Of a stretch of DNA of 64,000 bases, positions 1 to 39,628 are shown one piece after another. Under the pieces are notes generated by a model. That model was not told the DNA's origin. It did no database searches and was given only the letters and a program-made list of their open reading frames with translations. Origin of the DNA: an uncultured delta proteobacterium (GTDB lineage Bacteria > Desulfobacterota > RBG-13-43-22); NCBI GenBank assembly GCA_963790475.1, contig CAWBOS010000015.1, forward strand, positions 416,001 to 480,000, written 5' to 3'. Numbering within the stretch: the first letter of the stretch is position 1; each line of letters begins with the position of its first letter. Made by a program: the position numbers and the translations under genes.

Positions 1-979
1 CAGGCAGGCAGGGGTGCCCCTCCGCTGGTGGCCACCTGAACGGAAGAGAGTTGGGGTCCGGCAATCTCGGCCGGAAGGGACAGGATGGCCGCCCACAGGC
101 TGGGTACGACCGGGAAGGAAATCGGCCGGTAAGTCTCATTGATTTTCAGCAAGGAAAGGATATCCAGGGGGTCGATCCTGGGCAGGAGGACCATCCGGTA
201 TCCCTTTAGTACGGAAACAAGAAGACAAGCCGATAACCCGAAAACATGGAAAAAAGGAATCACGCACAGAGCCGCGGCATTGCCGGCATTCTGTTCTCCC
301 ATCCAGGCATCGGACTGGAGCACACTGGCAATAAGATTGGCGTGGGTCAGGACAGCGGCCTTGGGGATCCCGGTGGAACCGCTTGTAAACTGCAAGCACG
401 GCCACATCTTCGGGAGAGACCTGAACCGGCGGTTCTTCCGCACTTGAGGCCGAGGCGGTTACTTCCTGGAATATTTGAGGTTGCGGGTCTCCTGCTTCCA
501 AAGGAATTTTCTTTTCCAACCCGAATATGGAGTGAAGGATAACGGTTTTCACCCCGGTTTTTTTAATCACCTGATAGATATTCTGGGCAAACAGATCCAG
601 GGTGATAACCATCCCGGCCCCGGAGTCGTTGAGGCAGCGGGCCAGTTCTTCTCCCTGAATCCCCACACTTATATTGACCACAATGGCCCCGAGTTTCATA
701 ACGGCAAAAAAGGCGATCACATAGGTCGGGGAGTTAACTAGAATAAAAGCGATCCGGTCTCCCTTTTTCAACCCCCTGCTCCCGAAGGGCCTGGGCGAAC
801 CGGTTTACTCTCTCATTCAGTTCCCGGTAGGTCAGGTGGGTTTCATTAAAGGAGAGGGCGGTATAGTCCGGGTGGTTGGTCGCCGTGTCCGTCAGGAAAC
901 GTTGGAGGGGAATCGGCGGATAAGTTAGGGAATGGGGAACATGTCCCTCATAGTGCTTGAGCCACGGTTTTTCTTTCAT
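1..979 (-). CDS. Long-chain fatty-acid--CoA/AMP-dependent ligase, N-terminal part (runs off left edge; frameshifts near 770 and 390)
   Basis: MKEKPWLKHYEGHVPHSLTYP... continues as KKGDRIAFILVNSP and DVAVL, then a YTSGSTG-type AMP-binding motif in another frame; ATG at 979. Confidence 0.85.
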
Positions 980-1049
980 CGACTCTCCAATATTTTGAAA
1001 CCTGTTTTCCGAATAACAATGAAAAAGTTCAAAAACGCCCGTGGCCCTT

Positions 1050-1310
1050 CTACCCATTTTTCCGGTTGGCCTCAATATAGTCCGCCAGGGAGGAAAGGGT
1101 AATAAAGACTTTCTCGCCCAGATCCTTACTGAAGATCTCCACCCCGTAATCTCTTTCTACCAGGACTACCAGGACCAAAAGGTCCACGGAAGCCAGACCG
1201 AGGCCTCCATCAAAGAAAGGGGTGTCGTCTGCCAATTCATTGGGGTCCATATCTTCGAGTTGGAGTTCTTCTACGATTTTTTCTTTTAATTCTTGCAGGA
1301 GTTGTTTCAT
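1050..1310 (-). CDS. Acyl carrier protein with atypical GLGLASVD attachment motif
   Basis: 86 aa, acidic; DDTPFFDGGLGLASVDLL...ERDYGVEI. Confidence 0.85.
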   Translation of the reverse strand: MKQLLQELKEKIVEELQLEDMDPNELADDTPFFDGGLGLASVDLLVLVVLVERDYGVEIFSKDLGEKVFITLSSLADYIEANRKNG

Positions 1311-1515
1311 AGTTGATCCCATATTGAGCGCCCTCTATCCGGAAGTTTTTTGCTTTCTGCTTCAAATTCCCCATCATTTTCCTATCCCCTTTTATTAGAG
1401 AAATAGAGGACTTTAAGATTTTAGGCGTAGAGATTGCCGGGGAAAAAACGCCTTTGTTTTTCTAACATAACAAGGGTTAATGTCAATATCAAATAAATGT
1501 TTCCCATAATTTTCC

Positions 1516-1545
1516 TTGACCCCGGTTCCTTTTTCCATTTATAAT
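1516..1545 (+). promoter_or_regulatory. Putative sigma70 promoter for the ACP-rSAM-FabF operon
   Basis: TTGACC-N18-TATAAT in the AT-rich divergent intergenic region. Confidence 0.45.
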
Positions 1546-1661
1546 TATTAGAATAATTTAAAAGGTCCTGATAAAGATGATTTTCTTTGAGAAACTAATT
1601 TTCCTGCACTCTTTTCTTAAAGAACCCCGAAGAACAAATACTTAAGTCAACAAGGAGGATA

Positions 1662-1937
1662 ATGATGCCTAAAGGCCATGATATTAAAGGCATTATTGAA
1701 AAGGTAGCCCAAATCATCATTTCTGAACTCAAGCTGGAAGACGTTACGCTTGAGACGTTCAATCCTGATTTGGATCTGATTGATGAACTGGGAATTGACA
1801 GTATGGATTTGGCTACTATCGCTTTGGTTTTGCAGGACGAATACAAGATTATGATTGACGAAGACGATTATCCCAAATTAAAGACCATTCGACTGATCGC
1901 GGAATATGTCGGGGAAAAAATTTCAGCCCGGGGTTAA
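1662..1937 (+). CDS. Acyl carrier protein
   Basis: ELGIDSMDLATIAL phosphopantetheine motif; AAGGAGG RBS. Confidence 0.92.
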   Translation: MMPKGHDIKGIIEKVAQIIISELKLEDVTLETFNPDLDLIDELGIDSMDLATIALVLQDEYKIMIDEDDYPKLKTIRLIAEYVGEKISARG

Positions 1938-1996
1938 TATTCCTGCAGCTCAATCCCGGTATTGGGAACAATCAACTTAAGAGGAACACATTGGCT

Positions 1997-3067
1997 ATGA
2001 CCATCAACCATCAGGCATCCCTGGAACCGGAAAAACCGAAGTTTTCCGATCTCCTCGCCCATCCGGAAGTCAGGCAACGCTGGGAAAAAGTCAAGAAATA
2101 TTTTTTTCTGCGGGAATCCACCTACGACATGAGCAACCGTTGCAACCTCCGCTGCGACGGCTGTTATTATTTTGAAGGCGAAAAGCAGTTTGCCGTGGAA
2201 AATACCCAAGTGGAAGCTTGGCGCGAGCTTATGCAATCCGAAAAAAAACGGGGCATCACCTATGTGGTTCTGGCCGGGGCCGAGCCTTCGCTCGTCCCCG
2301 AGCTGTTGGAGGTTTGTTTTCAAGAACTGCCGCTGGGCAGCATAGCGACCAACGGTTTTAAAAAAATACCGGAATCGGTGGGTTATAAAATCCATATTTC
2401 CGTTTGGGGGAATGATGAAACCAGCCTCCGAATACGGAAGGCCAAAGATCTCTTAAAAAAACAAATTGAAAATTATCGCAATGATCCACGGGCCGTTTTT
2501 GTCTATACCTTTACCCGGGAAAATATGGAAGAAGTCTCTGAAGTGGCCAAGCGGCTCGTTTCCGAAAACTGTAAACTGACTTTTAATGTCTTTTCTTCTC
2601 CGTTAGGATATAATGGAGCGTTGCGCCACGATAGGGAGTCGTTGGCGAGGGCTCGAACCTCCATGATTGAGCTCTTGGAGAAATATCCAAAACATGTCCT
2701 TTTTTCGGTTTATAATGCCGTGGCTCATACCCATCAAGGCAGTTTGCACGATCTTTTCTCCTGCTTGTATCCCCGGCAAAACCCTTCCCAGGATCTTGGC
2801 CTGGGGCGGTCTTTTCGCCAATACCGGACCGACTTGAAATGGGATCGATCAGCGGCCTGCTGTGTGCCAGACACCGACTGCGCCGACTGCCGACATTACG
2901 CATCGGGTTCGGCTATTGTCACCGCTCGCCTTTTTCGCCATGCCGATAAGTTGGAAACCTTTCAGGCCTGGTTGGATTACGTGGACACCTATTTGGCGGT
3001 TTGGGTGATGGGGTATCCCAAAGGGGAGAATCTTTGCTCGACTCCGGTCAACCCCCCACTGGCTTAA
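1997..3067 (+). CDS. Radical SAM enzyme (paralogue A) with C-terminal Cys cluster
   Basis: CNLRCDGC motif, AGAEP, ATNG; C-terminal CCVPDTDCADC. Confidence 0.88.
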   Translation: MTINHQASLEPEKPKFSDLLAHPEVRQRWEKVKKYFFLRESTYDMSNRCNLRCDGCYYFEGEKQFAVENTQVEAWRELMQSEKKRGITYVVLAGAEPSLVPELLEVCFQELPLGSIATNGFKKIPESVGYKIHISVWGNDETSLRIRKAKDLLKKQIENYRNDPRAVFVYTFTRENMEEVSEVAKRLVSENCKLTFNVFSSPLGYNGALRHDRESLARARTSMIELLEKYPKHVLFSVYNAVAHTHQGSLHDLFSCLYPRQNPSQDLGLGRSFRQYRTDLKWDRSAACCVPDTDCADCRHYASGSAIVTARLFRHADKLETFQAWLDYVDTYLAVWVMGYPKGENLCSTPVNPPLA

Positions 3068-3116
3068 TAGTCGAACGGGAAACAGATAATCATATGGGTC
3101 TCAAAGGATCGGCTTC

Positions 3117-4115
3117 ATGATCACCGTTAGTTCATTACTGGATCAACCTTGGTACGAACGCTACAAACGGATATCCAATCTGAATATCCGCAGTTCCATT
3201 TATGACGTCACCAACCAGTGCAATTTACGCTGCAAGGGTTGTTTCTTCTTTTCTTCCAACGAACACCAGGCGGCCCGGGAAGAAATGGATCTCCAAAAGT
3301 GGGAAGCGTTTATCGACCGGGAAAAAGAACGAGGGGTCAATCTGGCCATATTGATCGGCGGCGAGCCGACTCTTTACCTGGATCGGGTCGAGGCCTTTTA
3401 CCGGCGTCTGCCGTCCTATTGCGCGACCAACGGGTTAATTAAAATTCCGCGGGACCGCTTTCCCGACATGATGGTCGGGATCTCGCTCTGGGGCAGTCCC
3501 GAAGACGAAAAAGTCCTCCGGGGACGGGACACCTTTGCCATCTCCAGTAAGAGTTATGCCGGCGATCCTTTTACCTATTATTTGTTCACCATCACCCCGC
3601 GGCAGGTGGGAAAGATCGAGCCGGTCATTCAAAGAATTGCGGATGTGGGATTGAAGGTCCATCTTCAGCTTTTGTCAAATGACGAACATGTGGACGGCTT
3701 TTCCTGGCAGGAGAACGAACTGAAAGACTTGTGTAGTGAAATGGATGCCATGCTGGACCGGTATCCCCAGACGGTCATCTCCAGTAAATATTACCATCAG
3801 ATCATCACCACCGGAATCATGATGGGCCGTCCCTTCGGCTGGAACGAATGTCCATCGGTTACCGAGTCCTTAGATGACCGGGACCCCCAGCCCCGCCGCC
3901 TGATCCATTTTATCCGCTGGGCTTCCGATTTAAAGACGGTCCATCGCTGTTGTACTTCGGCCACACGGGATTGCTCCACCTGCAAGGACGGCGCGGCCCA
4001 CATGAGCTGGGCTATGGTCAATAAGCGGGAGCATATCCGGACAACCGAAGATTTACAAAACTGGATCGAAGTCTATGAAATGTTTGCCAAGCTCTATCGC
4101 TTTATCCCCTGGTAA
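3117..4115 (+). CDS. Radical SAM enzyme (paralogue B) with C-terminal Cys cluster
   Basis: CNLRCKGC motif, GGEP, ATNG; C-terminal CCTSATRDCSTC. Confidence 0.88.
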   Translation: MITVSSLLDQPWYERYKRISNLNIRSSIYDVTNQCNLRCKGCFFFSSNEHQAAREEMDLQKWEAFIDREKERGVNLAILIGGEPTLYLDRVEAFYRRLPSYCATNGLIKIPRDRFPDMMVGISLWGSPEDEKVLRGRDTFAISSKSYAGDPFTYYLFTITPRQVGKIEPVIQRIADVGLKVHLQLLSNDEHVDGFSWQENELKDLCSEMDAMLDRYPQTVISSKYYHQIITTGIMMGRPFGWNECPSVTESLDDRDPQPRRLIHFIRWASDLKTVHRCCTSATRDCSTCKDGAAHMSWAMVNKREHIRTTEDLQNWIEVYEMFAKLYRFIPW

Positions 4116-4264
4116 CCCCAGGCGGCCCTCAGGCAACCAGCCTTTGCCGGCACTTCATCGGCTTCTACGATAAAGTCAACGTCCCTGCTGCAAAAGTCTC
4201 GGACCTCCAGCATTCCCGGCTTTGGCGTCATCAGGATTAATATTAAAGCGGACTATTATCCACT

Positions 4265-5515
4265 ATGGTTTCAAGAAAAGCAGTCATTTTAGGGTATGAT
4301 GCTGTTTCTCCCTTAGGCACGGATTGGGAAACCCAATGGGAACGTGCCGTTCGCGGGGATTCGGGCATAGGACCTTTAACCCGGTTCCCGTTGAGCGCCG
4401 AATTTCCGGTTCGGGTAGCCGGTGAAGTTCCCCCTTTCGACCCCCGTCCCTTTTCTTTTTTACAGCCTCGGGAGATGGCCCATTGGACCTCGCCCATTTT
4501 TAAATACGCCCTTTTGGTTGTGCACCGCGCGCTGTTAAAAAGTGGGCTGGTGATTACGCCCGAGATCGCCCCCCGCGTGGCGGTCACTTTCAGCACCGCC
4601 GTCGGCGGATTGGATGCGGTTTTAGAGGCCGATCGTCTGATGGTATCTCAACAAAAGATGCCTCCTCCCTTTACCAATCCCAATTCCTGTATCAACATGG
4701 TCGGCGGCCGGGTTTCTGTATTCACCGGGGCCAGCGGGCCTATCTGTTCAACCATAACGGCCTGCGCCACCGGAGTCACTTCCTTGATCATGGGTGAGCT
4801 GCTCCTGCAGCGCGGCCTGGCCGATGTAGTCATCGGCGGCGCCGTCGATTTTCCATTGGTCGAACCGATCGTAGCCGGATTTGCCACTATGAATGGGGCC
4901 TATCGTCCCAAGGAAGGTCAACCTCTGGTGCCGCCGGAAAAAACCAGCCGGCCTTTTTCAGCCAACCGCAGGGGGTTTGTGGTTTCCGAAGGGGCCGGCT
5001 GCATTATTTTGACCACGGCGGATTTTGCCAAAGCCCACGGGCTCCAGGCGCCTATTGAACTGGCCGGCTATGGAATGACCTCAGATGCCACCCACTTTGT
5101 TGCCCCCAATCTGGAAACGGTTCAAAGATGCATCAGTCAGGCTATTGCCGACGCGGGCCTGCAGCCTTCGGATATCCATGCCGTGAATGCCCACGCCACT
5201 TCCACAAAAGTGGGAGACAAAGTGGAAGCCGATGCGCTGCATAATATCTTCGGCACAAATCTCCCCCCGGTAACGGCCAATAAATCGCAATTGGGTCATG
5301 CCATGGGGGCCTCCAGCGCCATCGAGGCCATTTTGGCCATGGATGGCTTGCTTAAAGAGACCTTGCTTCCCACGATTAATTATCTCCCTGATCCGGAGAT
5401 TGAGTTGGATTGCGTGGCTGAGGGGGCCAGAAAATTCAAAGGGGAATTTGTGCTGAAAAATGCCCTGGGGTTTGGCGGATGCAATTCCTGTCTGATTCTA
5501 CGCCGGCTAATTTAG
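4265..5515 (+). CDS. fabF: Beta-ketoacyl-ACP synthase (FabF-like)
   Basis: TACATG (Cys), NAHATST (His), KSQLGHAMGA (His), NALGFGG. Confidence 0.9.
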   Translation: MVSRKAVILGYDAVSPLGTDWETQWERAVRGDSGIGPLTRFPLSAEFPVRVAGEVPPFDPRPFSFLQPREMAHWTSPIFKYALLVVHRALLKSGLVITPEIAPRVAVTFSTAVGGLDAVLEADRLMVSQQKMPPPFTNPNSCINMVGGRVSVFTGASGPICSTITACATGVTSLIMGELLLQRGLADVVIGGAVDFPLVEPIVAGFATMNGAYRPKEGQPLVPPEKTSRPFSANRRGFVVSEGAGCIILTTADFAKAHGLQAPIELAGYGMTSDATHFVAPNLETVQRCISQAIADAGLQPSDIHAVNAHATSTKVGDKVEADALHNIFGTNLPPVTANKSQLGHAMGASSAIEAILAMDGLLKETLLPTINYLPDPEIELDCVAEGARKFKGEFVLKNALGFGGCNSCLILRRLI

Positions 5516-5581
5516 TCGAAACACCCCATCGGATCAATATTAGAATGGAAGGTTAAGATTACAAAGGATGTGCGGTAAGCC

Positions 5582-6846
5582 ATGAAGGCACCTAAAAACA
5601 GAAAAGTATTTGTCGTCGGTTACGGGACGGCTACCCCCCTGGGGAGTACCTTTGAAAAGACCTGGAAGCGCGCCGTTAAAGGGGAAGCCGGTTTCCGGAA
5701 AGTGACCCGCTGTCAGGTGGAATCCGCTTGCAACATTGTCGGTGAGATCCCGGACTGGAATCCTCTGGATCTTGATTTTATCGATGCCAAAGAAATGTAC
5801 AACTGGAATGCCGCTTTTGTTATCCTGACTATGGCCGTCTGCCGGGAGGCCCTGGAAAATGCCGGGATTACCATGGATGACCGGATTGCCCCGCGCATGG
5901 CCTGTCTGATCGGTTCGGCCCTGAATGGGCCGGATGCCTTCCGAGTAGCGATGCAGGATTTGGAACACCGCGGCCCGCTCCGGGTAAGCCCTTATTTACT
6001 GCCCAATTTGTGCGCCAATGTCCCGGCCGGGAAAGCCGGTATGCTTCTGAAATTTACCGGTCCTATCTTTTCCCCCAGGGGGCCTGCGCCTCGGGCAACC
6101 ATGCCATCGGCCTGGGGGCCAGAATGATCCGGGATGGGGATTGCGATTTCGTACTGGCCGGCGGGGCCGATGCCCCCATCCTGCCGGAATTGATTCACGG
6201 CTTTGCCAATATGAATGCCACCATCAAGGTCCATCCCGAGGATCGCGCTTATTCCGATCCGGCTCAGGCTTCCCGTCCTTTCAGTTTCGACCGCAAAGGA
6301 TTTGTCCTTTCGGAAGGGGCAGGAGTAGTCGTCCTGGCGGCGGAAGAGCTGATAAAGGCCTATGGTCTTAAGGCCAGGGCTGAGGTTTTAGGGGTTGGAT
6401 GGACTTCGGATGCTTATCATTACACCAGCCCCAACCCCACCACCATTATCCGGGCCATCAGGGAAACCATTGAGGATGCCGGTCTGAAACCGGCGGACAT
6501 TGAATACATCAATGCCCATGGAACGTCCACACCCAAGGGCGACCGGACGGAAGTAAAATGTCTGCGAGAAGTTTTTGGGAAAACAATAGAACGTATTCCG
6601 GTATCTTCAAACAAGTCCCAGTTGGGACATACCCTGGGCGCGACCGCGGCCATTGAGGCCGCTTTGACCATTGAGGCCATGGGTAGGGGGCTTATTTTGC
6701 CGACCATTAATCATCTTCCCGATCCCGATTTTCCCGATATCGATGTCGTGGCCAATGTGGTCCGCAAAAAAAATTATGAAATTGCGCTTTCCAATGCCTT
6801 CGGTTTTGGCGGAACGAACTGCTGTATCATTTTTAGGGGGGTGTAA
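5582..6846 (+). CDS. fabF: Second FabF-like ketosynthase (frameshift in C-run near 6072, likely sequencing error)
   Basis: ORFs 5582..6127 and 6010..6846 join at FSPQGACASG; NAHGTST, KSQLGHTLGA, NAFGFGG. Confidence 0.88.
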
Positions 6847-6848
6847 AT

Positions 6849-7328
6849 ATGCGGCCCAAACCATTTCGGCCTGAGGTATTCAATAACGATCAAAAATTCG
6901 TCCGCGATCGCTCGACGGGATTGATCTGGCATCGTTCCACCTATAGAACCTTATATGCCGACACGGACCGCTCGGAAGTGGTCTATCATGCCAACTACCT
7001 GCGTTTTTTCGAATTCGGGCGAACCTCCTTGATGCGCGATTTTGGTTACCCCTACAAGGAAATAGAAGCCAGCGGTTTTGTCTATCCTATCATTGATTTG
7101 AAGATCGGTTTTTATTCCCCGTTGTATTATGATGATTTGATGTATATCCATACCCGGCCGACCCACCTGGAGCGGGTGCGTTTGCAGTTCGACTACCTGA
7201 TCACCCAGGCTGAGAACGGTAGGATCGTCTGCGTCGGTTTTACCAAACATTGCGCCTTGAATGCCAAGAGCCTTCCCGTGGCCGTCGATCCCAAAACGGT
7301 TGAGCTCTGGAAATCGTTCCCCGGTTAG
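6849..7328 (+). CDS. Hot-dog fold acyl thioesterase (YbgC/4HBT-like)
   Basis: YADTDRSEVVYHANYLRFFEFGR motif. Confidence 0.85.
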   Translation: MRPKPFRPEVFNNDQKFVRDRSTGLIWHRSTYRTLYADTDRSEVVYHANYLRFFEFGRTSLMRDFGYPYKEIEASGFVYPIIDLKIGFYSPLYYDDLMYIHTRPTHLERVRLQFDYLITQAENGRIVCVGFTKHCALNAKSLPVAVDPKTVELWKSFPG

Positions 7329-7336
7329 ATCAACCA

Positions 7337-8179
7337 ATGCGTTACCCTTTGGAAATCGAAGTCAGTGATTATCTCTATGATCATCACTTCGAAGGCCGGT
7401 TTGTGTTACCAGCCGTTGAAGCACTGATCATCCTGGCCAAGGCCGTTCAAGACCATTTTCCCAACGTGGATGTGTGTTGTTTGAATAAGGCCCGCTTCCC
7501 CCGCTTTTTAGTTATTCCCCCGGGAACACACCGTCTCCCGGTCTTAGTAGAAGTAGAGGAAACACCAGACGGGGCTATTTCCGCTCTGCTGATGACCTCG
7601 GTCAGATCAAAAACCGGAGGCATAGGCCGCAACTTGGAGCATGCCCGGGTAGAATTTTCCTTGGCCGATTCTCCTCCAAATTCTTTCCCTCCCTTAGCTG
7701 ACGCAGATAATCCTGAAGAATCGGGCATCATAGTACCGGCTGAATCGATTTACCCTGGATTGATCCCTTTCGGGAGGGCCTTTCAAAATATCATCAGCCC
7801 GGTCTCTCTTTGGCCCGGAGGGGCAGCGGCTTCTCTCTCAGGCGCGGACCAGGGAACAGAGGATGATTGGCTCGGCTCCCCCTTCCCCTTTGATGCCGCT
7901 ATTCAAGTGGCTTGTGTCTGGGGGCAACGTTTTACCGAGTATATTCTCTTTCCGGTTGGTTTTGAAAAAAGGATCATTCACCAAAAAACAAAAAAAGGCG
8001 GAATCTATCTTGGCCGTATCACGCCAGTGGCCATTGGACAGAACCCATTTTTATTTGATGCCCTGATTTTTGATTCTCAAGGGACGGTCTGTGAAGAAAT
8101 CCGAAGTATTCAAATGCAGGATGTATCCCAGGGCCGCCTCCGCCCGCCATTATGGATCAAGGAGTTGCGACCGGCTTGA
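7337..8179 (+). CDS. Stand-alone PKS-type (double hot-dog) dehydratase
   Basis: YLYDHHFEGRFVLPA (HxxxGxxxxP) and FDAAIQ (DxxxQ) motifs. Confidence 0.72.
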   Translation: MRYPLEIEVSDYLYDHHFEGRFVLPAVEALIILAKAVQDHFPNVDVCCLNKARFPRFLVIPPGTHRLPVLVEVEETPDGAISALLMTSVRSKTGGIGRNLEHARVEFSLADSPPNSFPPLADADNPEESGIIVPAESIYPGLIPFGRAFQNIISPVSLWPGGAAASLSGADQGTEDDWLGSPFPFDAAIQVACVWGQRFTEYILFPVGFEKRIIHQKTKKGGIYLGRITPVAIGQNPFLFDALIFDSQGTVCEEIRSIQMQDVSQGRLRPPLWIKELRPA

Positions 8180-8549
8180 TAACCTGAAAATTCACTTCAA
8201 CCTTTAAGTTCAGCAGACGGGAATTTCGGTTCTGGTCAGGCATTGCGAGGAGTTGATGAATATGAACTCTCCCGTTTTACTCGAAATGACGAATTGAGGA
8301 AAGTTGTATCACCTGACCAAATGGTTTCGAACCGTCAGTCCGGGAAAACGGCTAAAATCCCTGTCTGCGCTCCACAACATATTTACCCCGTAAGGAAAGG
8401 GGGACAAACACAAGGCGTTGCCACTCTTCAGGTAATTATTTGGCCAAAGGCCAGAGTCCCGCCTTGGAGGGATTCAATCCAGCCCCTCACGGGATTGAAA
8501 AAAAGATTCTCTCAGCGTCCTTTGCGTCTGGCGGTGAAAAATAATTCCT

Positions 8550-9809
8550 TTACATCCCCACCCGGCCGAACTTCCGGTCGGCCTTGGTCTGCCATCGGCG
8601 GAAGGTGCCGTCGGCCATTTCCTTGGCGATAACTCTTTTGAAAAGTTCGAACATCCGGTAGGATTGTGGCTTTTCGCGGTAGAAGGTTTCCCAGGACTCG
8701 TCGTATAATTCCTGAAGACGCTCCACACTCATGTGTTTCGGCTGGAAGATGACTTTGTCGCAGGTATAGTCATTCCAATCGTAGGACAGAATCCGCCCTT
8801 CCTGTTGCAGGTCGGTGAAGGCCCGCGTGTGGGGAAAGGGGGTCAGGACGGTGAATTCCGCCAGATCCAGTTCGACCTCCAGGAGAAAATCGAAGAGGCG
8901 GCGGATATAATCTTCGGTGTGGTGGTCGAGACCGAGGAGGATGGTCCCCTCGACCCCGATCCCAAAATCATGGTAGTGTTTGATCCGGTTGCGGATTAAG
9001 TCCGAGGTATCGAAAACCGCCTGATAGACATACCAGGCCCCGGCCTGGGCCGCCAGATCCAGCACCTCTTCATCATCCTCGATAGGGTGGGAGCACCACT
9101 TTTTTTTCAGAGGAATCATCTCCCGGAATAGTTGCTTTTCCCAGGCCTTGTCCTGGGCCAAGGAATTGTCCACAATGAAAAGACGATTATTTTCTATGGC
9201 GGCCAGTTCCTCCACAACCTTGTCCATGGGGCGGGGCCGGAACTGACGTCCCCCCAGAAAACTGACACAGCAGGGATAGCAGTTAAATCGGCATCCCCGC
9301 GAGGCGTGGAAAAGATCGACCATCTGGACGCCCTTGTAGTTGTAAAGCTCCCGTTTAAGGAGGTCCCGTCGGGCCGTGCCGACCGAGGCGATGGGTGGAA
9401 AATCGGTCAGGTAGTCGTAGACGTTTTGAAGCCGGTTATTCTGGAAATCATCCAAAACCTGCTCCATACGTCCTTCCGCTTCCCCCAGGAAGACCGCGTC
9501 GGCATGAAGGGAAGTCTCTTCGGCATGGAGCATAGTGGCAATGCCGCCGCAGATGACCGGCAGACCTCTCCTCCGGTATTCATCGGCAATTTCCCAGCCC
9601 CTTTTCACCTGGCTGGTCAGCATCATGGAGATCCCCACCAAGTCCGCTTGGTCATCGAAATCAATGGTCTCCAGATTTTCATCGACGAAATCTATTTCCA
9701 CATCTTGGGGCAGGGCGGCGGCGAAGACAACGGGGCCATGCGGGGGGAGATGGAACTCGGTCTGGCCTTTGAGCTTTTTCCACTTGGGATAGATGAGTTT
9801 AAATTTCAT
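8550..9809 (-). CDS. Cobalamin-dependent radical SAM enzyme
   Basis: N-terminal B12-binding region (LVGIS...ICGGIATML), SRGCRFNCYPC, LTPFPHT. Confidence 0.88.
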   Translation of the reverse strand: MKFKLIYPKWKKLKGQTEFHLPPHGPVVFAAALPQDVEIDFVDENLETIDFDDQADLVGISMMLTSQVKRGWEIADEYRRRGLPVICGGIATMLHAEETSLHADAVFLGEAEGRMEQVLDDFQNNRLQNVYDYLTDFPPIASVGTARRDLLKRELYNYKGVQMVDLFHASRGCRFNCYPCCVSFLGGRQFRPRPMDKVVEELAAIENNRLFIVDNSLAQDKAWEKQLFREMIPLKKKWCSHPIEDDEEVLDLAAQAGAWYVYQAVFDTSDLIRNRIKHYHDFGIGVEGTILLGLDHHTEDYIRRLFDFLLEVELDLAEFTVLTPFPHTRAFTDLQQEGRILSYDWNDYTCDKVIFQPKHMSVERLQELYDESWETFYREKPQSYRMFELFKRVIAKEMADGTFRRWQTKADRKFGRVGM

Positions 9810-9955
9810 GAGGAAAAAATATCATACCTGACAAGGAAGGTCAATTATTTAGAGCCAGTCAAGTAAAGCACAGACTAACTACCAAAGTTGTCTAAGAATA
9901 AAAAACAGGACCAATAAGATTAACGAGTTCGAAAAAATCATTGAAGATCGTTAAA

Positions 9956-10178
9956 GTCATTCCGTCGGAGAGACTGTGTCACGATTACATTTATGTCATT
10001 CCGTGCAAGCAAAGCGCGACACGGAATCCAGTTTTTCCGATAAGTTCTGGATACCGGCTTTCGCCGGTATGACGACTTTGATGGCGCTTTAAGTAATTAC
10101 GAAACCGCCTCGGAAGCCTGAGTCCAGTATTCTAAAGTGGAAAAAATTATCCTGGACCCCGGTTTTCTCCGGGGTGAC
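9956..10178. repeat. REP-like palindromic element interrupted by a MITE
   Basis: GTCATTCCGTC-GGA|...|AGCCTGAGTCCAG...CTGGACCCCGGTTTTCTCCGGGGTGAC. Confidence 0.65.
9970..10111. mobile_element. 142-bp MITE, copy 1 (3-bp TSD GGA)
   Basis: Near-identical to 53302..53443; imperfect TIR GAGACTGTGTCACGATT...AATTACGAAACCGCCTC; GGA on both sides. Confidence 0.8.
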
Positions 10179-10194
10179 GACTATTATCGATTCT

Positions 10195-10791
10195 TCAATT
10201 CTGAGAAGTTGGAATTATTTTTTCGGATTTCTTTTTATAAGCCGCAATATTGGATTTATGGGCCCAAAAGATCAGAGCCATAGTCAAAGCCACCGCTATA
10301 ATCACCGGCCAATCCCGGGCATAACGGATCATGGTCCCCACTCCCAAAAAAGCGATCATAAAAAAAGACCCGACAAAGGGTATACGAAACACCCCGTAAG
10401 CCAGAACCCAGGCCAGGCAGGAAATCCCGGCCACGACCGGAGACAAAAAAGCAGTGAACCCCAGATAACCGGCTACGCCTTTACCCCCTCGGAACCCATG
10501 AAACAGCGGTTTTTGATTCCCGATCACCAGGACCAGCCCCAAGACAGGTACCAATGGAGCAGGCAAAAACCAAACCCCGACTTGGGCGATGACTACGGCA
10601 CGACCCAGGTCCAGCAAGAGGACCACCGCCCCCCAGAATTTGCCGAGCTGCCTGGAGACGTTAGTAGTCCCGGCATTGCCGCTGAAACGGTCCCTCGGGT
10701 CACCCTGGCCAAGTATTTTAAACAGGATAATGGAAAAATTGATCGAGGCGGCAATATAAGTTGACAGCCCCAATAACAATAAGGTCCCCAA
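10195..10791 (-). CDS. plsY: Glycerol-3-phosphate acyltransferase PlsY family
   Basis: SGNAGTTNVSR, FRGGKGVA, HKSNI motifs; hydrophobic. Confidence 0.88.
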   Translation of the reverse strand: MGTLLLLGLSTYIAASINFSIILFKILGQGDPRDRFSGNAGTTNVSRQLGKFWGAVVLLLDLGRAVVIAQVGVWFLPAPLVPVLGLVLVIGNQKPLFHGFRGGKGVAGYLGFTAFLSPVVAGISCLAWVLAYGVFRIPFVGSFFMIAFLGVGTMIRYARDWPVIIAVALTMALIFWAHKSNIAAYKKKSEKIIPTSQN

Positions 10792-12276
10792 CTAATCCTC
10801 CGCTGCCCCTGGTTCCTTTCCAGGGTCTGCAATCCGACTGTCGGTCCTGACAAAACGGAGGAACCCTCCGAGATTGGACAGGAACCTCTTCCAACTGTCG
10901 GGGGAGCGCCAGATCATGGTCAGGTAGCCGAGGAGCATTTTGGGCCGCATAAAGTGTTTCCGGTAGAACCTGATGAAAAGTTTTTCCAGAAGCTCGGCCG
11001 TCATCCCCCGGGGAACGAAGAGGAAATGCATACAGTCCATTTTTTCCCAGTCTTCTTCAAAGGTCCCCAGCTCGTGGGCCTTTTCATAGAGGGGCGTACC
11101 CGGGAAGGGGGTAAATTTGGAGACATTGATGTCATCAATGGGCAAAGAAAAGACATAATCCATGCTTTTTTGGATACTCGATTCGGTTTCACCGGGCAAA
11201 CCTACCATGAGCAGTCCCTTGACCCGGATACCGACTTTATGGATCAGATGTATTTTTTCGGCCAGCATCTCCAGGTTGGGGTTTTTGCGGTGCTGGGCCA
11301 GAAGGTCCTCATCCCCGGTTTCCACACCAAGACTGATCATCCAGCATCCGGCCTCTTTCATCATCCGGGCCAGAGCGAGATCAATATGCTCGGCCCGGAC
11401 GGCACAGTTAAAGGTCATCCCCAGCGGCTTATCAATCATCATCCGGGCGAAGGCCTCGACCCTTTTACGATTAAAAGTGAACTGGTCATCATAGAAGTTG
11501 ATGTGCCGGATATGAAAACGATCGTTGAGATATTTCAGATGTTCATAAAGGTAGTCGGCGGAATTGTACCGGAAACTGCTCCCGAACACGGAACGGTCAC
11601 AGTAACTGCAGGCATAGGGGCATCCCCGGCTGGATATGCAGCTGGTATTGGGGACCGTCGGATAATTGAAAATGGGCAGCTTGTAGGTTTGAGGATAACC
11701 GTCCAATTTTTCATAGGCGGGAAAAGGCAGACTGTCGAGATCGATGCCTTTGGCCCGGTAGCCGATAAAATGCGGGATCCCTTCCGGGCCGCGCCAGACT
11801 ACGCCGGGAATCGGGGACGCCGCATTAATTTCTCCATTGCAGGACACAAGCTCGGCCAGGGTCTGTTCGCCCTCACCGACCACGGCAAAATCAACCTCCG
11901 GAAAATCGGCCAGGCTCTTGGTTTTCAGGGCCGAGACATGAGGGCCCCCAAAAACCGTTTGTATGCCCGGCAAATCCTTTTTTGCCATCCTGGCGATGCG
12001 GACTCCATCCAGAAAGCTCGACGTGGTGCAACTGAAGCCGATGAAAGCCGGCTTCTTTTCGATCAGATAATCCTTGATGAAACCATCGGAAAAAGGCTTG
12101 GCAAAATAATCGACGATATCAGCTTGAATATTCTCCTTTTCCAGATAGGCTGCCATGCTGGCCAGGCCCAGGGGGGGCATGATATTGGCTATACGCGAAA
12201 CATCCTGCCCCGACCTTTCCACCTTGTAACCCAGGGGATGGACGAGGAGGATTCTATTCTTCTGTAAAACGGGCAT
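10792..12276 (-). CDS. Cobalamin-dependent radical SAM enzyme (BchE/HpnJ-like architecture)
   Basis: PPLGLASMAAYL, VFGGPHVS, VGEGE, SRGCPYACSYC, TPFPGT. Confidence 0.9.
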   Translation of the reverse strand: MPVLQKNRILLVHPLGYKVERSGQDVSRIANIMPPLGLASMAAYLEKENIQADIVDYFAKPFSDGFIKDYLIEKKPAFIGFSCTTSSFLDGVRIARMAKKDLPGIQTVFGGPHVSALKTKSLADFPEVDFAVVGEGEQTLAELVSCNGEINAASPIPGVVWRGPEGIPHFIGYRAKGIDLDSLPFPAYEKLDGYPQTYKLPIFNYPTVPNTSCISSRGCPYACSYCDRSVFGSSFRYNSADYLYEHLKYLNDRFHIRHINFYDDQFTFNRKRVEAFARMMIDKPLGMTFNCAVRAEHIDLALARMMKEAGCWMISLGVETGDEDLLAQHRKNPNLEMLAEKIHLIHKVGIRVKGLLMVGLPGETESSIQKSMDYVFSLPIDDINVSKFTPFPGTPLYEKAHELGTFEEDWEKMDCMHFLFVPRGMTAELLEKLFIRFYRKHFMRPKMLLGYLTMIWRSPDSWKRFLSNLGGFLRFVRTDSRIADPGKEPGAAED

Positions 12277-12441
12277 ATTCTAACCTTGTTTGGTGGATGG
12301 GGTGAGTATAAAATATGGCACAGACAGGGTCAAGAAAGAAAAAAGGCTTTCCCCCCTTCATTTTTAACCTGTTCAGCCGTTTCAACTTCAATCAGAGGGG
12401 AGGGGACTTTTTTTACTTATTTTAATAAAAAAATTTAAATC

Positions 12442-12483
12442 TTGACTTAAGTCAATGGAATTTCCGGCCAAAGTGATTATATT
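12442..12483 (+). promoter_or_regulatory. FNR/CRP-family (HcpR-type) box plus -10 element upstream of hcp
   Basis: Perfect palindrome TTGACTTAAGTCAA (12442-12455); TATATT at 12478-12483 puts the box centre at about -41.5. Confidence 0.7.
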
Positions 12484-12538
12484 GTATCTCAGCAAGCTGA
12501 TCTAACGAAAATATTCAATTATTAGAAAGGAGAATAAT

Positions 12539-14168
12539 ATGTTTTGTTATCAATGTGAACAAACCGCCAAAGGAGAAGGTTGTACTAAAATCGGGGTCTG
12601 CGGAAAGCAGCCGGAGGTCGCGGCCCTGCAGGATCTGGTGGTTTACACCATGAGGGGGTTATCCCAGGTGGCAGTAGAGGGCCGGAAAGTAGGTATCAGC
12701 GACCCAGAGGTAAATGCTTTCACTGCGGAAGCCATGTTTTCCACCTTGACCAACGTGGATTTTGACCCGAACGGTTCAGACCCATTCTTCAAAAAATCGT
12801 CGGCTTAAGGGAAAAGCTGAAGGCCAAAGTCAAAGCCGCCGGGGGCAAGGTCGATTTTCCGGAAGGGCCGGCCAATTTGGCCCTGGCCGACAGTCTGGAA
12901 GGACTGACCGCCCAGGGAGAAAAGGTCGGTATCAAAGCAGATACTACAACGGATAGAGACATTCATGCCCTGATCTGGACCGTTACCTTCGGCATTAAAG
13001 GAATTGCCGCCTACGCCGATCATGCCCGGATCCTCGGTCAGGAAGACGAGGCCATTTACGCCTTCATGCATGAGGGACTGGCGGCCACCTTGAACAAGGA
13101 CCTGACCCTGAACGACTGGATCGGCCTGACCATGAAAGCGGCGAGATCAATCTGAGGACCATGGAAATCCTGGACGCCGCCAACACCGAAACTTATGGCC
13201 ATCCCGTACCTACCAAGGTCCCCTTGGGCCATAAAAAAGGCAAGGCCATCCTGGTTTCCGGCCACGACCTGAAGGATATGGAACTGATCCTGAAGCAGAC
13301 CGAGGGGAAAGGGATTACCGTCTATACCCACGGGGAGATGCTGCCCGCTGCACGGCTATCCCGAACTGAAGAAATATGCCCATTTTTACGGTCATTACGG
13401 AACCGCCTGGCAGAACCAGGGCAAAGGAATTCGCCGAATTCCCCGGGGCCATCCTCATGACCACCAACTGCATCCAGAAACCGAAGGAGTCCTATCAGGC
13501 CAATATCTTCACTACCGGTCTGGTCGGCTGGCCCGGGGTCACCCACATTGCCGATAAAAATTTTACTCCGGCCATTGAAAAGGCCCTGGCCCTGCCCGGT
13601 TTTGCTGAAGACAGCGACGGGAAAACGGTTACCGTGCGGTTTTGGCCGGAATACCGTGATGGGCGTGGCCGGAACGGTCATCGAGGCGGTCAAGAACAAG
13701 GCCATCCGTCATTTCTTCCTGGTGGCCGGCTGTGACGGGGCCAAACCGGGCCGCAATTATTATACCGAGTTTGTGGAAAAGGCGCCGAAGGATACGGTCA
13801 TCCTCACCCTGGCCTGCGGCAAGTTCCGGTTCTTTGACAAGGAATTGGGAGATATCGGCGGTATCCCCCGTCTGTTGGATGTAGGTCAATGCAATGACGC
13901 CTATTCGGCGGTCCAGATCGCCGTGGCCCTGTCCAAGGCCTTTAATGTGGGGGTAAACGATCTGCCTTTATCCATGATCCTGTCCTGGTATGAACAGAAG
14001 GCCGTGGCTATTCTCCTGACCCTGCTTTACCTGGGGATTAAAAATATCCGCCTGGGGCCATCTCTGCCGGCTTTCATCACCCCTAACGTGCTGGATTTTC
14101 TGGTCAAGAATTTCAACATCATGCCCATCAGCACCCCGGAGGCGGATTTGAAGGCGATATTAGGTTAA
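12539..14168 (+). CDS. hcp: Hybrid cluster protein (hydroxylamine/NO reductase), split by several frameshifts
   Basis: [23 protein letters not shown]; [42 protein letters not shown] across ORFs 12539/12877/13161/13376/13548. Confidence 0.93.
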
Positions 14169-35687: not shown

Positions 35688-35838
35688 TTTTTTGATCCTT
35701 CTCTGTTTATTCTTAGGATTCAAGGAGCCAAAGGGACGGATTCAAGTAAAAAGCCAAGGAACATAAAAATCAACCCACTGAATCTTCGAACCCTTTTTTA
35801 TTCTGACCCCTGCCTCCTGTATTCTAACTTCTATTTTA

Positions 35839-37974: not shown

Positions 37975-37980
37975 TCGAAT

Positions 37981-39612: not shown

Positions 39613-39628
39613 ATGAAATTATTTTCAA

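Follow-up and report, generated by a model that had tools for sequence, protein, structure and literature searches.

A conserved fatty-acid synthesis operon with paired radical-SAM enzymes in a sulfate-reducing bacterium, candidate for making an unusual glycerolipid acyl chain

[quoted passage not shown] Similar clusters of Desulfobacterota are called 'ladderane' by antiSMASH, according to a passage of PMC9902471. As for lipid assembly, it is established that FakAB forms acyl-phosphate, the substrate of PlsY (stated in the abstract of PMC11586512). A search of the literature found no paper describing the operon considered here.

The locus comes from a sulfate-reducing bacterium and was analysed within a stretch of 64,000 nucleotides (the window), the first 12,276 of which hold a conserved gene set. 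Pfam and NCBIfam searches confirmed, each in its place, all the genes named in the initial annotation, listed here together with one promoter-like site:

1-1075, minus strand: AMP-ligase, running off the left edge, in three frames (Pfam AMP-binding)
1050-1322, minus strand: acyl carrier protein ACP1 (PF00550, NF006617)
1516-1545, plus strand: putative promoter upstream of ACP2 (TTGACC, 18 nt, TATAAT)
1662-1937, plus strand: acyl carrier protein ACP2 (PF00550), gene 1 of the core operon
1991-3067, plus strand: rSAM1, radical-SAM enzyme of twitch/SPASM type (motif CNLRCDGC)
3117-4115, plus strand: rSAM2, paralog of rSAM1 (motif CNLRCKGC)
4265-5515, plus strand: ketosynthase KS1 (Pfam ketoacyl-synt N and C domains)
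5582-6846, plus strand: ketosynthase KS2, FabF type, in two frames (5582-6127, 6010-6846)
6849-7328, plus strand: 4HBT thioesterase (4HBT_2, TIGR00051)
7337-8179, plus strand: PS-DH double-hotdog dehydratase (PS-DH, HxxxGxxxxP)
8550-9809, minus strand: B12-rSAM of 419 aa (B12-binding, CRFNCYPC)
10195-10791, minus strand: PlsY2, PlsY family (PF02660)
10792-12276, minus strand: B12-rSAM of 494 aa, HpnJ/BchE-like (B12-binding, Radical_SAM, CPYACSYC)

The plus-strand genes are separated by gaps of 2-149 bases, an operon-like spacing. The site at 1516-1545 matches 11 of 12 consensus positions but is suggestive only as a possible ACP2 promoter, promoter-like sites in the region being no more numerous than in shuffles (13 versus 11.6 +/- 3.6). 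An ORF at 8243-8632 (129 aa) matches no family and is probably not a gene, because in relatives it is matched only antisense to the B12-rSAM gene. The frameshifts of the AMP-ligase and KS2 genes were absent from the initial annotation. The three AMP-ligase frames, which match positions 2-47, 44-167 and 166-300 of the AMP-binding profile, are broken by two 1-base insertions (~394-396 and ~759-760), and KS2 is one C short in the C-run 6071-6076, immediately upstream of the active-site Cys codon, relative to two close relatives (L004, L005). Public short-read contigs (one of the runs compared being at least 99% identical to the window) have one base fewer at ~396 and ~759 and one more C at 6071-6076, inserted behind 6071 in contigs of runs X2 and X3, while contig X1 continues with one extra C; because these contigs correct all three frameshifts, the shifts are assembly errors, not pseudogenes. 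Elsewhere in the window, piecewise Pfam matches were seen for Hcp (12539-14168), AprA (40065-41513) and a second AMP-ligase (57364-58981).

The core consists of seven genes (ACP2, rSAM1, rSAM2, KS1, KS2, the thioesterase and the PKS-type dehydratase), found complete and in the same order in 55 of the 80 loci retrieved with rSAM1, in 64 of the 80 retrieved with the rSAM1 profile and in 14/16 regions taken from further families within the phylum, many of the misses being loci on short contigs that are shorter than the core. This arrangement is far beyond chance. Carriers belong to the Syntrophales, Desulfobulbales and Desulfobacterales, with some Spirochaetota and one purple sulfur bacterium. 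Several cultured strains are among them, candidates being Desulfofustis glycolicus DSM 9705, Desulfogranum japonicum DSM 18378, Desulfopila aestuarii DSM 18488, Thiorhodococcus mannitoliphagus DSM 18266 and strain NaphS2; the core is intact across at least three orders. These synteny counts bear out, across orders and even phyla, the co-conservation on which the initial annotation depended, and in the window the genes correspond to no characterised cluster. The distribution is patchy (31 of the 401 genomes sampled in the phylum, and 18 of 254 genera). The co-occurrence counts below refer to these 401 genomes (30 counted as carrying the rSAM pair, 371 as non-carriers), in cross-tabulations assembled by hand from four separate search outputs, and they overstate support, related genomes being non-independent.

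ACP2 (PF00550, 38.2 bits; motif LGIDSMDL) lies immediately upstream of rSAM1 in 78/80 and 80/80 related loci and is the dedicated carrier protein of the core operon. rSAM2 adjoins rSAM1 in nearly all loci, KS1 intervening in two; the two enzymes are paralogs (27-31% identity, with paralog matches in 30 genomes). In rSAM1 the residues C51, C55, C58, C290, C297 and C300 are invariant, and its AF2 model (pLDDT 91.4) is closest to SkfB (Z 18.3), anSMEcpe (Z 17.5) and BlsE (Z 17.2), which places it in the SPASM/twitch group of structures, with a single auxiliary Cys cluster at its C-terminus, although its identity to these fold neighbours is only 14-20% and the reactions that they catalyse are of many kinds. 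The neighbours (SkfB, anSME, BlsE, SuiB, ChlB) carry out bond formation or oxidation aided by auxiliary clusters. Against NCBIfam, rSAM1 has no match above 34 bits. Besides CNLRCKGC, rSAM2 contains C245, C278, C279, C286 and C289. Orthologs share 63-88% (rSAM1) and 70-92% (rSAM2) identity across orders, with a mean column identity of 83% for rSAM2 (14 orthologs, several families); this identity is unusually high, so both enzymes appear to be under strong constraint.

Judging by their motifs, both ketosynthases are of FabF type with a complete Cys-His-His triad (TACATG, NAHATST and GHAMGAS in KS1; GACASG, NAHGTST and GHTLGAT in KS2). KS1 reaches 327 bits with TIGR03150, under the cut-off of 494, and its best solved-chain match is a canonical FabF (269 bits). 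Together the ketosynthases score 282 and 269 bits against canonical FabF versus 205, 172 and 138 bits against chains 9s5h_B and 9s5h_C; 9s5h may be the anammox heterodimer. The thioesterase (4HBT_2, 45.5 bits; TIGR00051, 82.5 bits versus a cut-off of 68.7) is a YbgC/FadM-type hotdog enzyme, followed in related loci by the dehydratase (PS-DH, 28.0 bits versus a cut-off of 23.7; HxxxGxxxxP at H16-P25). Neither an enoyl reductase nor a malonyl transferase was found in the cluster, which counts against the reading preferred below.

As had been suspected, the cluster continues leftward: adjoining the window on that side are the remainder of the AMP-ligase, an acyltransferase of LpxL/PIM type, a FakA-like+DegV fatty-acid kinase fusion, a PPTase of Sfp type and two reductases of the SDR family. 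The window holds the N-terminal two thirds of the AMP-ligase, which is FadD-like and has orthologs in three related loci (L004, L005, L010; 54-92% identity by segment); the enzyme probably loads an acid onto ACP1. This second carrier is of PRK09184 type (PF00550, 32.6 bits; NF006617, 73.1 bits versus a cut-off of 70) and shares 41-53% identity (60-95% for the closest relatives) with the ACP preceding the TIGR04072 B12-rSAM in Smithellaceae loci. The kinase fusion, 2.5 kb left of the window, is composed of Dak2, a FakA middle domain and DegV (149.5 bits versus a cut-off of 99.7); a FakA-like/DegV kinase occurs in 30/30 carriers of the rSAM pair versus 3/371 non-carriers, and it adjoins the core in twelve further loci (L004, L009, L010, L099, L145, L146, L149, L151, L152, L156, L169, L172).

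PlsY2 (PF02660, 114.6 bits) reaches 91 bits with TIGR00023, under the cut-off of 137, compared with 172.6 bits for the housekeeping PlsY on contig C12; it keeps the conserved blocks common to housekeeping PlsY and would be a second, divergent acyl-phosphate:glycerol-3-phosphate acyltransferase. This type occurs in 22/401 genomes (19 of the 30 rSAM1 carriers versus 3/371 non-carriers) and lies directly after the dehydratase in 44/51 Syntrophales-rich loci, but beside the core in only 2/61 Desulfobulbales-rich loci. The phyletic patterns of kinase and PlsY2 thus lend support to the earlier proposal that the fatty acid is put into glycerolipid. Since PlsY2 is absent from 11 of the 30 carriers and so rarely beside the core in Desulfobulbales-rich loci, this route may be lineage-specific.

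The two B12-rSAMs differ in their conservation. The 419-aa enzyme (B12-binding, 33.2 bits) has close orthologs (at least 71% identity) in 26/30 rSAM1 carriers and 0/371 non-carriers, and is a core partner of the system; on contig C10, the genome under study has a 61% paralog of it next to the TIGR04072 gene. The 494-aa enzyme (B12-binding, 82.6 bits; Radical_SAM, 85.5 bits; HpnJ, 195.7 bits, under the cut-off of 577.6) abuts PlsY2, its stop codon being followed directly by the PlsY2 start, and is a lineage-specific accessory: orthologs at 85-89% identity are limited to the closest relatives (L004, L005), with homologs at 43-45% downstream of the dehydratase in L009, L011 and L062. Against TIGR04072 the two score 45.9 and 95.5 bits. 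Thus, PlsY and both B12-rSAMs are present in the window as originally described, but the adjacency of PlsY and the 494-aa enzyme are features of particular lineages.

From these predicted functions, we give about an even chance that the cluster is a dedicated type II line for an unusual, radical-SAM-modified acyl chain with its own glycerolipid route. The chain would grow on ACP2 through KS1 and KS2 from malonyl units, keto reduction being provided by the SDRs beyond the window's left edge or by housekeeping FabG and dehydration by the cluster's own dehydratase. rSAM1 and rSAM2 would abstract hydrogen from unactivated carbons of the tethered chain and then form a ring or cross-link through a new C-C bond, or else a double bond, with the auxiliary cluster carrying the second electron; methyl groups would be added by the cobalamin enzymes. 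The thioesterase would then release the free acid, the kinase would convert it to acyl-phosphate, and PlsY2, or the housekeeping PlsY where PlsY2 is absent, would transfer it to sn-1 of glycerol-3-phosphate, while the AMP-ligase, ACP1 and the LpxL-type acyltransferase may add or load a second chain. Alternatively, the kinase could activate an incoming free acid as starter, a direction that sequence does not fix.

A possible, though doubtful, alternative is that the core belongs, as a module, to an aryl-polyene-like pathway, where it would help to make or modify a polyene or lipid-anchored pigment exported to the outer membrane by LolA-like and MMPL proteins, and that the window shows a version of this module detached from the rest. 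In most other lineages the core does lie within an aryl-polyene-like cluster: in Desulfofustis glycolicus (L165) it is preceded by LolA-like, ApeP-like, ACP and KS/CLF-type fusion (PRK09185, 351 bits) genes, a TIGR04072 B12-rSAM (361 bits versus a cut-off of 360) and an ApeI-like gene, and followed by an MMPL-methyltransferase. A TIGR04072-type gene stands beside the core in 50/80 loci (rSAM1-profile set), the commonest order being B12rSAM_419, ACP, KS-like, TIGR04072-type, FabZ-like and core. This company of LolA-like, MMPL, ApeI/ApeP-like and KS/CLF genes in Desulfobulbales-rich lineages speaks for an exported outer-membrane product over bulk phospholipid, and counts against the main reading. 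The genome under study also has an aryl-polyene-like cluster on contig C10, which includes the paralog of the 419-aa enzyme, but the core in the window is unlinked from it and neighbours PlsY2, the fatty-acid kinase, an acyltransferase and an acyl ligase. Moreover, Pfam searches of 1-12276 gave no ApeI, ApeP, LolA or MMPL match, the two ketosynthases are FabF types with intact catalytic residues instead of a KS/CLF pair, and a kinase in all 30 carriers is more in keeping with a free fatty acid than with a pigment.

It is unlikely that the operon makes unsaturated or polyunsaturated fatty acids by an oxygen-independent route, in which the rSAM pair would be an anaerobic desaturase and the ketosynthases and dehydratases would handle unsaturated intermediates. 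We know of no radical-SAM desaturation of an unactivated alkyl chain. The PS-DH dehydratase, the dehydrogenase anSME among the nearest folds and a FabA gene adjoining the cluster in Smithellaceae loci (NF003509, 196.9 bits versus a cut-off of 124) would agree with it, but FabA is not conserved beyond this family. The proposal made for the clusters common to Kuenenia and D. psychrophila also favours it, yet the genes named there, Kuste3342/3343 and DP1853/DP1855 (PMC2649909), could not be linked to rSAM1 and rSAM2 as relatives, and D. psychrophila is absent among the loci listed. Five anammox genomes contain no orthologs of the rSAM pair, their best matches reaching 39-50 bits over the N-terminal core only, and no related FAS genes were found in the surroundings of the three such matches searched.

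That the line makes a secondary metabolite, a polyketide-like signal or an antibiotic, in place of a membrane lipid seems very improbable: a PPTase of Sfp type, an AMP-ligase paired with an ACP of its own, a releasing thioesterase, the patchy distribution and weak matches of ACPs and KSs to cispentacin ACP and KS models would suit it, but lipid assembly is the role of PlsY2, the kinase and the LpxL-type acyltransferase, which co-occur with the core, conservation across orders is unusually high for such pathways, and Pfam searches of 1-12276 revealed no antibiotic-type tailoring, resistance or regulator genes. Finally, identity with the ladderane (cyclobutane fatty acid) pathway of anammox bacteria is close to refuted and was rejected, despite the combination of FASII and radical-SAM genes, the TIGR04072 ('rSAM_ladder_B12') gene adjoining the core in other lineages and the antiSMASH label in that passage of PMC9902471, since both ketosynthases keep Cys-His-His, unlike anammox amxFabFmut as described in a preprint (10.64898/2026.05.19.726425), and score nearer to canonical FabF, neither B12-rSAM of the window reaches the TIGR04072 cut-off of 360, the anammox genomes gave only the weak matches above and Pfam found no phytoene-dehydrogenase-like gene in the cluster.

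The initial reading is, thus, partly upheld: co-conservation, leftward extension and glycerolipid routing gained support, while the likeness to anammox clusters, drawn by analogy, has the KS triads, TIGR04072 scores and genome searches against it. The importance of the preferred reading, a dedicated line for a radical-modified acyl chain, is that such an oxygen-independent radical-enzyme fatty-acid pathway would be one with no known product.

Every gene that the initial annotation had named in this cluster was recovered with Pfam and NCBIfam models. The cluster had also been suspected to run beyond the left end of the window and does so, the rest of the AMP-ligase, an acyltransferase, a kinase fusion, a PPTase and two SDR reductases lying there. 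The genes are the following (coordinates in the window; those to its left in order of increasing distance):

1-1075, minus strand: AMP-ligase, continuing beyond the left end of the window
1050-1322, minus strand: ACP1, of the PRK09184 type (73.1 bits against a cut-off of 70)
1662-1937, plus strand: ACP2
1991-3067, plus strand: rSAM1
3117-4115, plus strand: rSAM2
4265-5515, plus strand: ketosynthase KS1
5582-6846, plus strand: ketosynthase KS2
6849-7328, plus strand: YbgC-type thioesterase
7337-8179, plus strand: PS-DH double-hotdog dehydratase, with the motif HxxxGxxxxP
8550-9809, minus strand: 419-aa B12-rSAM, converging on the plus-strand genes
10195-10791, minus strand: PlsY-family gene (PlsY2), starting directly after the stop of the 494-aa B12-rSAM
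10792-12276, minus strand: 494-aa B12-rSAM
left of the window, nearest: C-terminal part of the AMP-ligase (FadD-like)
left of the window, next: LpxL/PIM-type acyltransferase, 313 aa
left of the window, after the acyltransferase: fusion of Dak2, FakA middle domain and DegV, 613 aa
left of the window, after the kinase fusion: Sfp-type PPTase
left of the window, after the PPTase: two SDR reductases, then hrcA-grpE-dnaK

The seven plus-strand genes, hereafter the core, are separated by gaps of 2-149 bases, and all four radical-SAM proteins of the cluster contain a CxxxCxxC motif. The spacer between PlsY2 and the 419-aa B12-rSAM (9810-10194, 385 bases) holds two similar GC-rich hairpin-like elements (GTCGTCA..CCGG....CCGG..TCCAG), which may belong to a short repeat family. 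Rfam gave no riboswitch or other RNA in positions 1-13000 (a single match of 22.5 bits against a cut-off of 35), and promoter-like and terminator-like sites were no more frequent than in shuffled sequence. Nine kb to the right of the cluster, an NMO/FabK-like gene (PF03060; 21358-22329) is a possible enoyl reductase.

The core operon is widespread and strongly conserved. Synteny was scored by tblastn with fixed identity thresholds in three sets of loci, which overlap in a few contigs and in which many of the incomplete cases are loci shorter than the core. All seven genes were found in the same order in 55 of the 80 loci fetched with rSAM1 (set 1, mostly Smithella, Syntrophaceae and Smithellaceae plus two Spirochaetota MAGs), in 64 of the 80 fetched with an rSAM1 profile (set 2, mostly Desulfobulbales and Desulfobacterales) and in 14 of 16 regions from other families of the phylum (set 3), which bears out the expected co-conservation of the cluster genes across genomes and excludes a chance adjacency of housekeeping FASII genes. 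Among the core carriers of set 2 are Desulfofustis glycolicus DSM 9705, Desulfogranum japonicum DSM 18378 and Thiorhodococcus mannitoliphagus DSM 18266; a further search yielded Desulfopila aestuarii (DSM 18488), Hydrosulfovibrio ferrireducens, strain NaphS2 and Leptospirales/Spirochaetes MAGs, and Desulforhopalus sp. IMCC35007 is another cultured carrier. The genes of rSAM1 and rSAM2, which are paralogs (27-31% identity), lie side by side in nearly all loci; among 14 orthologs from several families, mean column identity is 73% for rSAM1 and 83% for rSAM2. Two loci (L100 and L103, from genomes G269 and G297) have the order rSAM1-KS1-rSAM2-KS2, and these two genomes match the 419-aa B12-rSAM at only 50-51%. 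A conserved small ORF of about 134 aa that matches no family (L066:6237-6641, in a Smithellaceae locus, and homologs) lies beside the dehydratase or the core in most lineages; a search of the window genome did not recover this "orf134".

In a protein set clustered at 90%, rSAM1 has 2092 relatives at E ≤ 0.001, the best 120 of which are 76-100% identical. The 507 representatives from a library clustered at 50% comprise essentially one full-length cluster (70%), one protein at 42% and a thin tail at 23-37%, the named members of which (20 distant representatives) are alphaproteobacterial "radical SAM/hypothetical" proteins. A related-locus search with the protein at 42% (P0130, the nearest out-group) found no locus, and the ESM Atlas yielded only clusters labelled "putative radical SAM". 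Of 401 genomes sampled evenly over the phylum, 31 have an rSAM1 match, in 18 of 254 genera; 30 of these matches reach at least 63% identity and the other, in G038, is a lone homolog at 35%. The rSAM1 profile matches at least 598 stretches in contigs taken from one genome per species. FASII clusters with SAM-radical genes were described as common to Kuenenia and Desulfotalea psychrophila, with anaerobic PUFA synthesis proposed, in excerpts of Rattray et al. 2009 (PMC2649909). D. psychrophila is neither among the best 80 of the at least 598 stretches nor among the best 80 of 84 relatives, which is uninformative, as both sets extend beyond these 80. No paper describing the operon was found in the literature outside subscription journals and supplements.

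Three partners accompany the core. In a cross-tabulation by hand of searches over the same 401 genomes, the counts of which represent association and not a test statistic because kin are not independent, the kinase is present in 33 genomes, including all 30 carriers of the rSAM1/rSAM2 pair (the extras are G105, G246 and G290); orthologs of the 419-aa B12-rSAM (at least 71% identity) are confined to carriers, 26 of which have one, the remaining four having matches at 50-60% only; and the PlsY2 type is present in 22, of which 19 are carriers (extras G105, G290 and G318). In many genomes, 1.5-3 kb separate the kinase and the 419-aa B12-rSAM. Together with the acyltransferase, the kinase also adjoins the core in 12 fetched loci, and in about ten genomes its match contains one or two internal stops, where it is probably encoded by two genes instead of a fusion. 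A PlsY2 gene no more than 2.5 kb behind the dehydratase is seen in 44 of the 51 set 1 loci with room for it, 2 of 61 in set 2 and 4 of 12 in set 3.

The kinase fusion contains the domains of a fatty-acid kinase (Pfam scores of 61.8 bits for Dak2, 31.1 for FakA-like_M and 136.2 for DegV) and matches the DegV model TIGR00762 (149.5 bits against a cut-off of 99.7), staying below the equivalog cut-offs of FakA (95.8 versus 975) and FakB1 (46.5 versus 350). PlsY2 belongs to the PlsY family according to its PF02660 match (114.6 bits against a cut-off of 24.1) and its conserved blocks. With the housekeeping PlsY of the same genome it has 31% identity, 27 invariant columns and the blocks S-x-N-x-G-x-x-N-V-x-R, G-G-K-G-V-A and H-x-x-N-I in common, which we take to be catalytic; it remains under the TIGR00023 equivalog cut-off (91.1 versus 137.2 bits) and is outscored by the housekeeping protein on Pfam (114.5 versus 172.6 bits). 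In Firmicutes, the FakAB-PlsY system serves the uptake of external fatty acids, its kinase producing an acyl-phosphate and PlsY acylating glycerol-3-phosphate. The Dak2, FakA middle and DegV domains resemble this system, as does the presence of a PlsY-family protein with its conserved blocks retained, although here kinase and binding subunits form one 613-aa fusion within the biosynthetic cluster of a Gram-negative anaerobe, and PlsY2 is a second copy that falls below the TIGR00023 cut-off.

No curated family claims rSAM1 or rSAM2 (best NCBIfam match 33.5 bits). Both have the CxxxCxxC motif and a C-terminal Cys-rich domain with one auxiliary-cluster motif (in rSAM1, CCxPxxDCxxC plus an invariant Cys upstream), and rSAM1, whose structure was predicted with a pLDDT of 91.4, belongs to the SPASM/twitch group because of its best structural neighbours: SkfB (Z 18.3, 240 aligned residues, rmsd 4.2), anSMEcpe (17.5) and BlsE (17.2), followed by SuiB (15.5), ChlB (15.3), viperin, MoaA and, with a middling score, GDGT-MAS (13.2). 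HemN is only the 31st of its fold neighbours (Z 10.4), and neither protein matches the HemN-family models of NCBIfam. The predicted fold fixes no reaction, but is compatible with abstraction of a hydrogen and a subsequent bond-forming or oxidising step, in which the auxiliary cluster would relay electrons. A prediction of the rSAM1-rSAM2 complex scored 0.00, which says nothing on binding. The pair may be compared with Tes/GDGT-MAS, Mss and Jaw5, which act on hydrocarbon chains without oxygen; according to excerpts of the respective papers, Mss is Tmari_0825 of T. maritima (PMC13159169) and Jaw5 takes an enoyl thioester as its substrate while the chain is being extended (PMC13459092). The Tes model (NF045702) gives 30.6 bits for rSAM1 and 23.9 for rSAM2 against a cut-off of 450. 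Further differences from these lipid-modifying enzymes are the length of rSAM1 and rSAM2, about 350 aa with a single auxiliary motif, and the position of their genes beside those of an ACP and ketosynthases. As for the cobalamin enzymes, the 494-aa B12-rSAM does not reach the cut-offs of HpnJ (195.7 versus 577.6 bits) or BchE (162.5 versus 481.35 bits).

In the pathway that we propose, KS1 and KS2 would assemble a chain on ACP2, aided by the dehydratase(s) of the cluster and by borrowed or nearby reductases. While tethered to ACP2, the chain would be modified by rSAM1 and rSAM2; the cobalamin enzymes would probably methylate it. The thioesterase would then free the acid, the kinase would convert it to an acyl-phosphate, and PlsY2 or the housekeeping PlsY would acylate glycerol-3-phosphate, the AMP-ligase, ACP1 and the acyltransferase supplying or attaching the second chain. 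As sequence does not fix the direction of this step, the kinase could instead activate an incoming acid. In the proposed route of thioesterase, kinase and PlsY, the link to glycerolipid assembly made by the initial annotation, which had a dedicated radical-SAM fatty-acid line entering phospholipid through its own PlsY, is strengthened because of the dedicated fatty-acid kinase, and the link to ladderanes loses ground. That rSAM1 and rSAM2 are new acyl-ACP-directed radical enzymes, forming carbon-carbon bonds (rings or cross-links) without oxygen in a product that reaches membrane lipid through a pathway-specific kinase and PlsY, is a speculative proposal that we consider rather improbable.

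Anammox Cluster I (KustE3603-3608), proposed for ladderanes, encodes an ACP, FabZ, a phytoene-dehydrogenase homolog, a B12-rSAM and a dead/active FabF pair, of which amxFabFmut lacks the Cys-His-His triad and acts as chain-length factor (excerpts of preprint 10.64898/2026.05.19.726425). As far as these excerpts and those of PMC13459092 go, the window cluster resembles it in having a dedicated ACP, a FabZ-type dehydratase, two adjacent FabF homologs and radical-SAM gene(s) in a FASII-like cluster of a strict anaerobe. In contrast to Cluster I as excerpted, both window ketosynthases are catalytically intact by their Cys-His-His triads (TACATG, NAHATST and GHAMGAS in KS1; GACASG, NAHGTST and GHTLGAT in KS2) and there is no phytoene-dehydrogenase homolog. 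With scores of 45.9 and 95.5 bits, the two B12-rSAMs of the cluster fall short of the TIGR04072 cut-off of 360, whereas contig C10 of the same genome encodes a true member (627 bits). Features found in the window cluster in addition are its thioesterase, PKS-type dehydratase, PlsY and fatty-acid kinase. In five anammox genomes obtained through a 16S probe (Kuenenia hertensis, Brocadia sp. WS118, a Scalindua, a Brocadiaceae bacterium and H5_AMX3), the rSAM1 profile (A3) gave partial matches of 39-50 bits to the N-terminal core in four and none in the fifth, with no ortholog of rSAM1 or rSAM2, and no related FAS genes lie around the three of these matches for which the surroundings were fetched. 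A ladderane pathway is therefore rejected on the TIGR04072 scores, the intact triads and the lack of rSAM1/rSAM2 orthologs in these five genomes, and the parallel first drawn with the anammox clusters is weakened, as none of the three testable Cluster I features was found.

In Desulfobulbales, Desulfobacterales and Smithellaceae the core is embedded in clusters of the TIGR04072 and aryl-polyene (APE)-like type, and PRK09184-type ACPs, hotdog thioesterases and FabZ/ApeI-like dehydratases are shared with them. In the Smithellaceae locus L066 the order is FabA, small ORF, ACP, TIGR04072 B12-rSAM (382.8 bits against the cut-off of 360), polysaccharide deacetylase, FabZ/ApeI-like dehydratase, core and PlsY. 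In L165, the locus of Desulfofustis glycolicus, the core is surrounded by APE features, being preceded by a 419-type B12-rSAM, LolA-like, ApeP-like, ACP, a KS/CLF-type fusion, TIGR04072 B12-rSAM (361 bits) and ApeI-like genes and followed by a small ORF and an MMPL-methyltransferase; this embedding was found in most of the set 2 loci examined, an alternative pattern with kinase and acyltransferase occurring in L145-L157 and L172. The window region, however, has no LolA, MMPL, ApeI/ApeP, KS/CLF or TIGR04072 gene and so lacks the hallmarks of an APE cluster, PF22818, PF22817, PF03548, PF03176 and PF13723 being unmatched in 1-12276.

In the window genome, such genes lie apart, in an aryl-polyene-like set at C10:311000-325000 (loci L091 and L083) that comprises FabG, polysaccharide deacetylase/DUF3473, LolA, MMPL, a 4HBT thioesterase, two ketosynthases, a B12 protein 61% identical to the 419-aa B12-rSAM, the adjacent TIGR04072 B12-rSAM (627 bits), DUF2062 and an ACP; its APE features are partial (LolA, MMPL and the ketosynthase pair, with no ApeI or ApeP match). 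One more ketosynthase of this set is split in two frames. Paralogs of the 419-aa B12-rSAM of this type (59-64% identity) occur in 31 of the 401 genomes, 29 of which do not have the rSAM1/rSAM2 core. The system is thus modular, and in the window it is lipid-assembly genes that accompany the core. Where LolA and MMPL genes neighbour the core, the final product may be destined for export to the outer membrane. Clusters that antiSMASH calls "ladderane" in Desulfobacterota and other phyla have, according to excerpts of PMC9902471, no known function; in sulfate reducers, such "ladderane-type" calls conceal at least two separable modules.

Among solved structures, the ketosynthases are nearest to canonical FabF (282 and 269 bits), with lower scores against chains B/C of 9s5h (205, 172 and 138 bits), which is perhaps the anammox heterodimer, and against the type II PKS structures 6kxd (161 and 145) and 1tqy (157 and 131). 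They do not reach the housekeeping FabF model TIGR03150 (327.4 bits for KS1, and 88.8 and 282.8 for the halves of KS2, against a cut-off of 493.75). A pair of active KS and CLF without active-site Cys, as in type II PKS, is rejected, both having kept the Cys. In dialkylresorcinol clusters (DarABC) the condensing enzyme DarB is FabH-like (KAS III); such a cluster is rejected as well, since both condensing enzymes here are of the FabF type (PF00109, PF02801) and 1-12276 contains no ACP_syn_III.

The genome (G000; 6.34 Mb in 20 contigs) is that of a Desulfobacterota/Thermodesulfobacteriota sulfate reducer, because sat, aprBA and qmoABC-like genes are present in the window, and the closest records to the cluster bear names of this phylum. 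The dissimilatory sulfate-reduction block, with ATP sulfurylase, AprB, AprA and QmoABC-like/Hdr-like genes, occupies 34195-43413 on the minus strand. The AMP-ligase is split over three reading frames in the window and KS2 over two, the latter being one C short, compared with two relatives, in a C-run directly before the active-site Cys. Contigs from four public runs were aligned to 1-8200. The near-identical contig of run X1, which may stem from the sample that the window was assembled from and so serves as an assembly check and not as independent biology, has one base fewer at 396 and at 759 and stops at 6076, its loose end letters corresponding to one extra C; runs X2 and X3 (95-99% alike) have one base fewer at 760 and 394, respectively, and both add a C behind 6071. 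As short-read contigs correct all three shifts, both genes are most likely intact in the organism, and a pseudogene reading is rejected, the relatives' KS2 and the run contigs marking the frameshifts as assembly errors. Hcp (Prismane; 12539-14168), AprA (40065-41513) and a second AMP-ligase (57364-58981) match Pfam piecemeal or are shorter than usual, which suggests further assembly frameshifts and fits an error-prone assembly. A group II intron reverse transcriptase/maturase ORF (RVT_1 and GIIM; 31887-32801), in which the RVT match starts at profile position 64, may be 5'-truncated.

The cluster thus represents a widespread, uncharacterised and modular radical-SAM fatty-acid pathway, with a concrete and assayable proposed exit route through its thioesterase, dedicated fatty-acid kinase and PlsY. 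Several cultured strains carry the operon, so that, unlike the anammox case, it is directly testable. If the proposed carbon-carbon bond formation were true, an unseen class of carbocyclic or cross-linked fatty acids would be common to sulfate reducers, syntrophs, some spirochaetes and a purple sulfur bacterium, and would add, after ladderanes and the Jaw5 product, a third example of a ketoacyl lipid modified by radical-SAM enzymes, possibly with use as a new sedimentary biomarker. Should the product turn out to be a new lipid present in anoxic sediments, peat and digesters, it could be used as a marker for the organisms that carry the operon.
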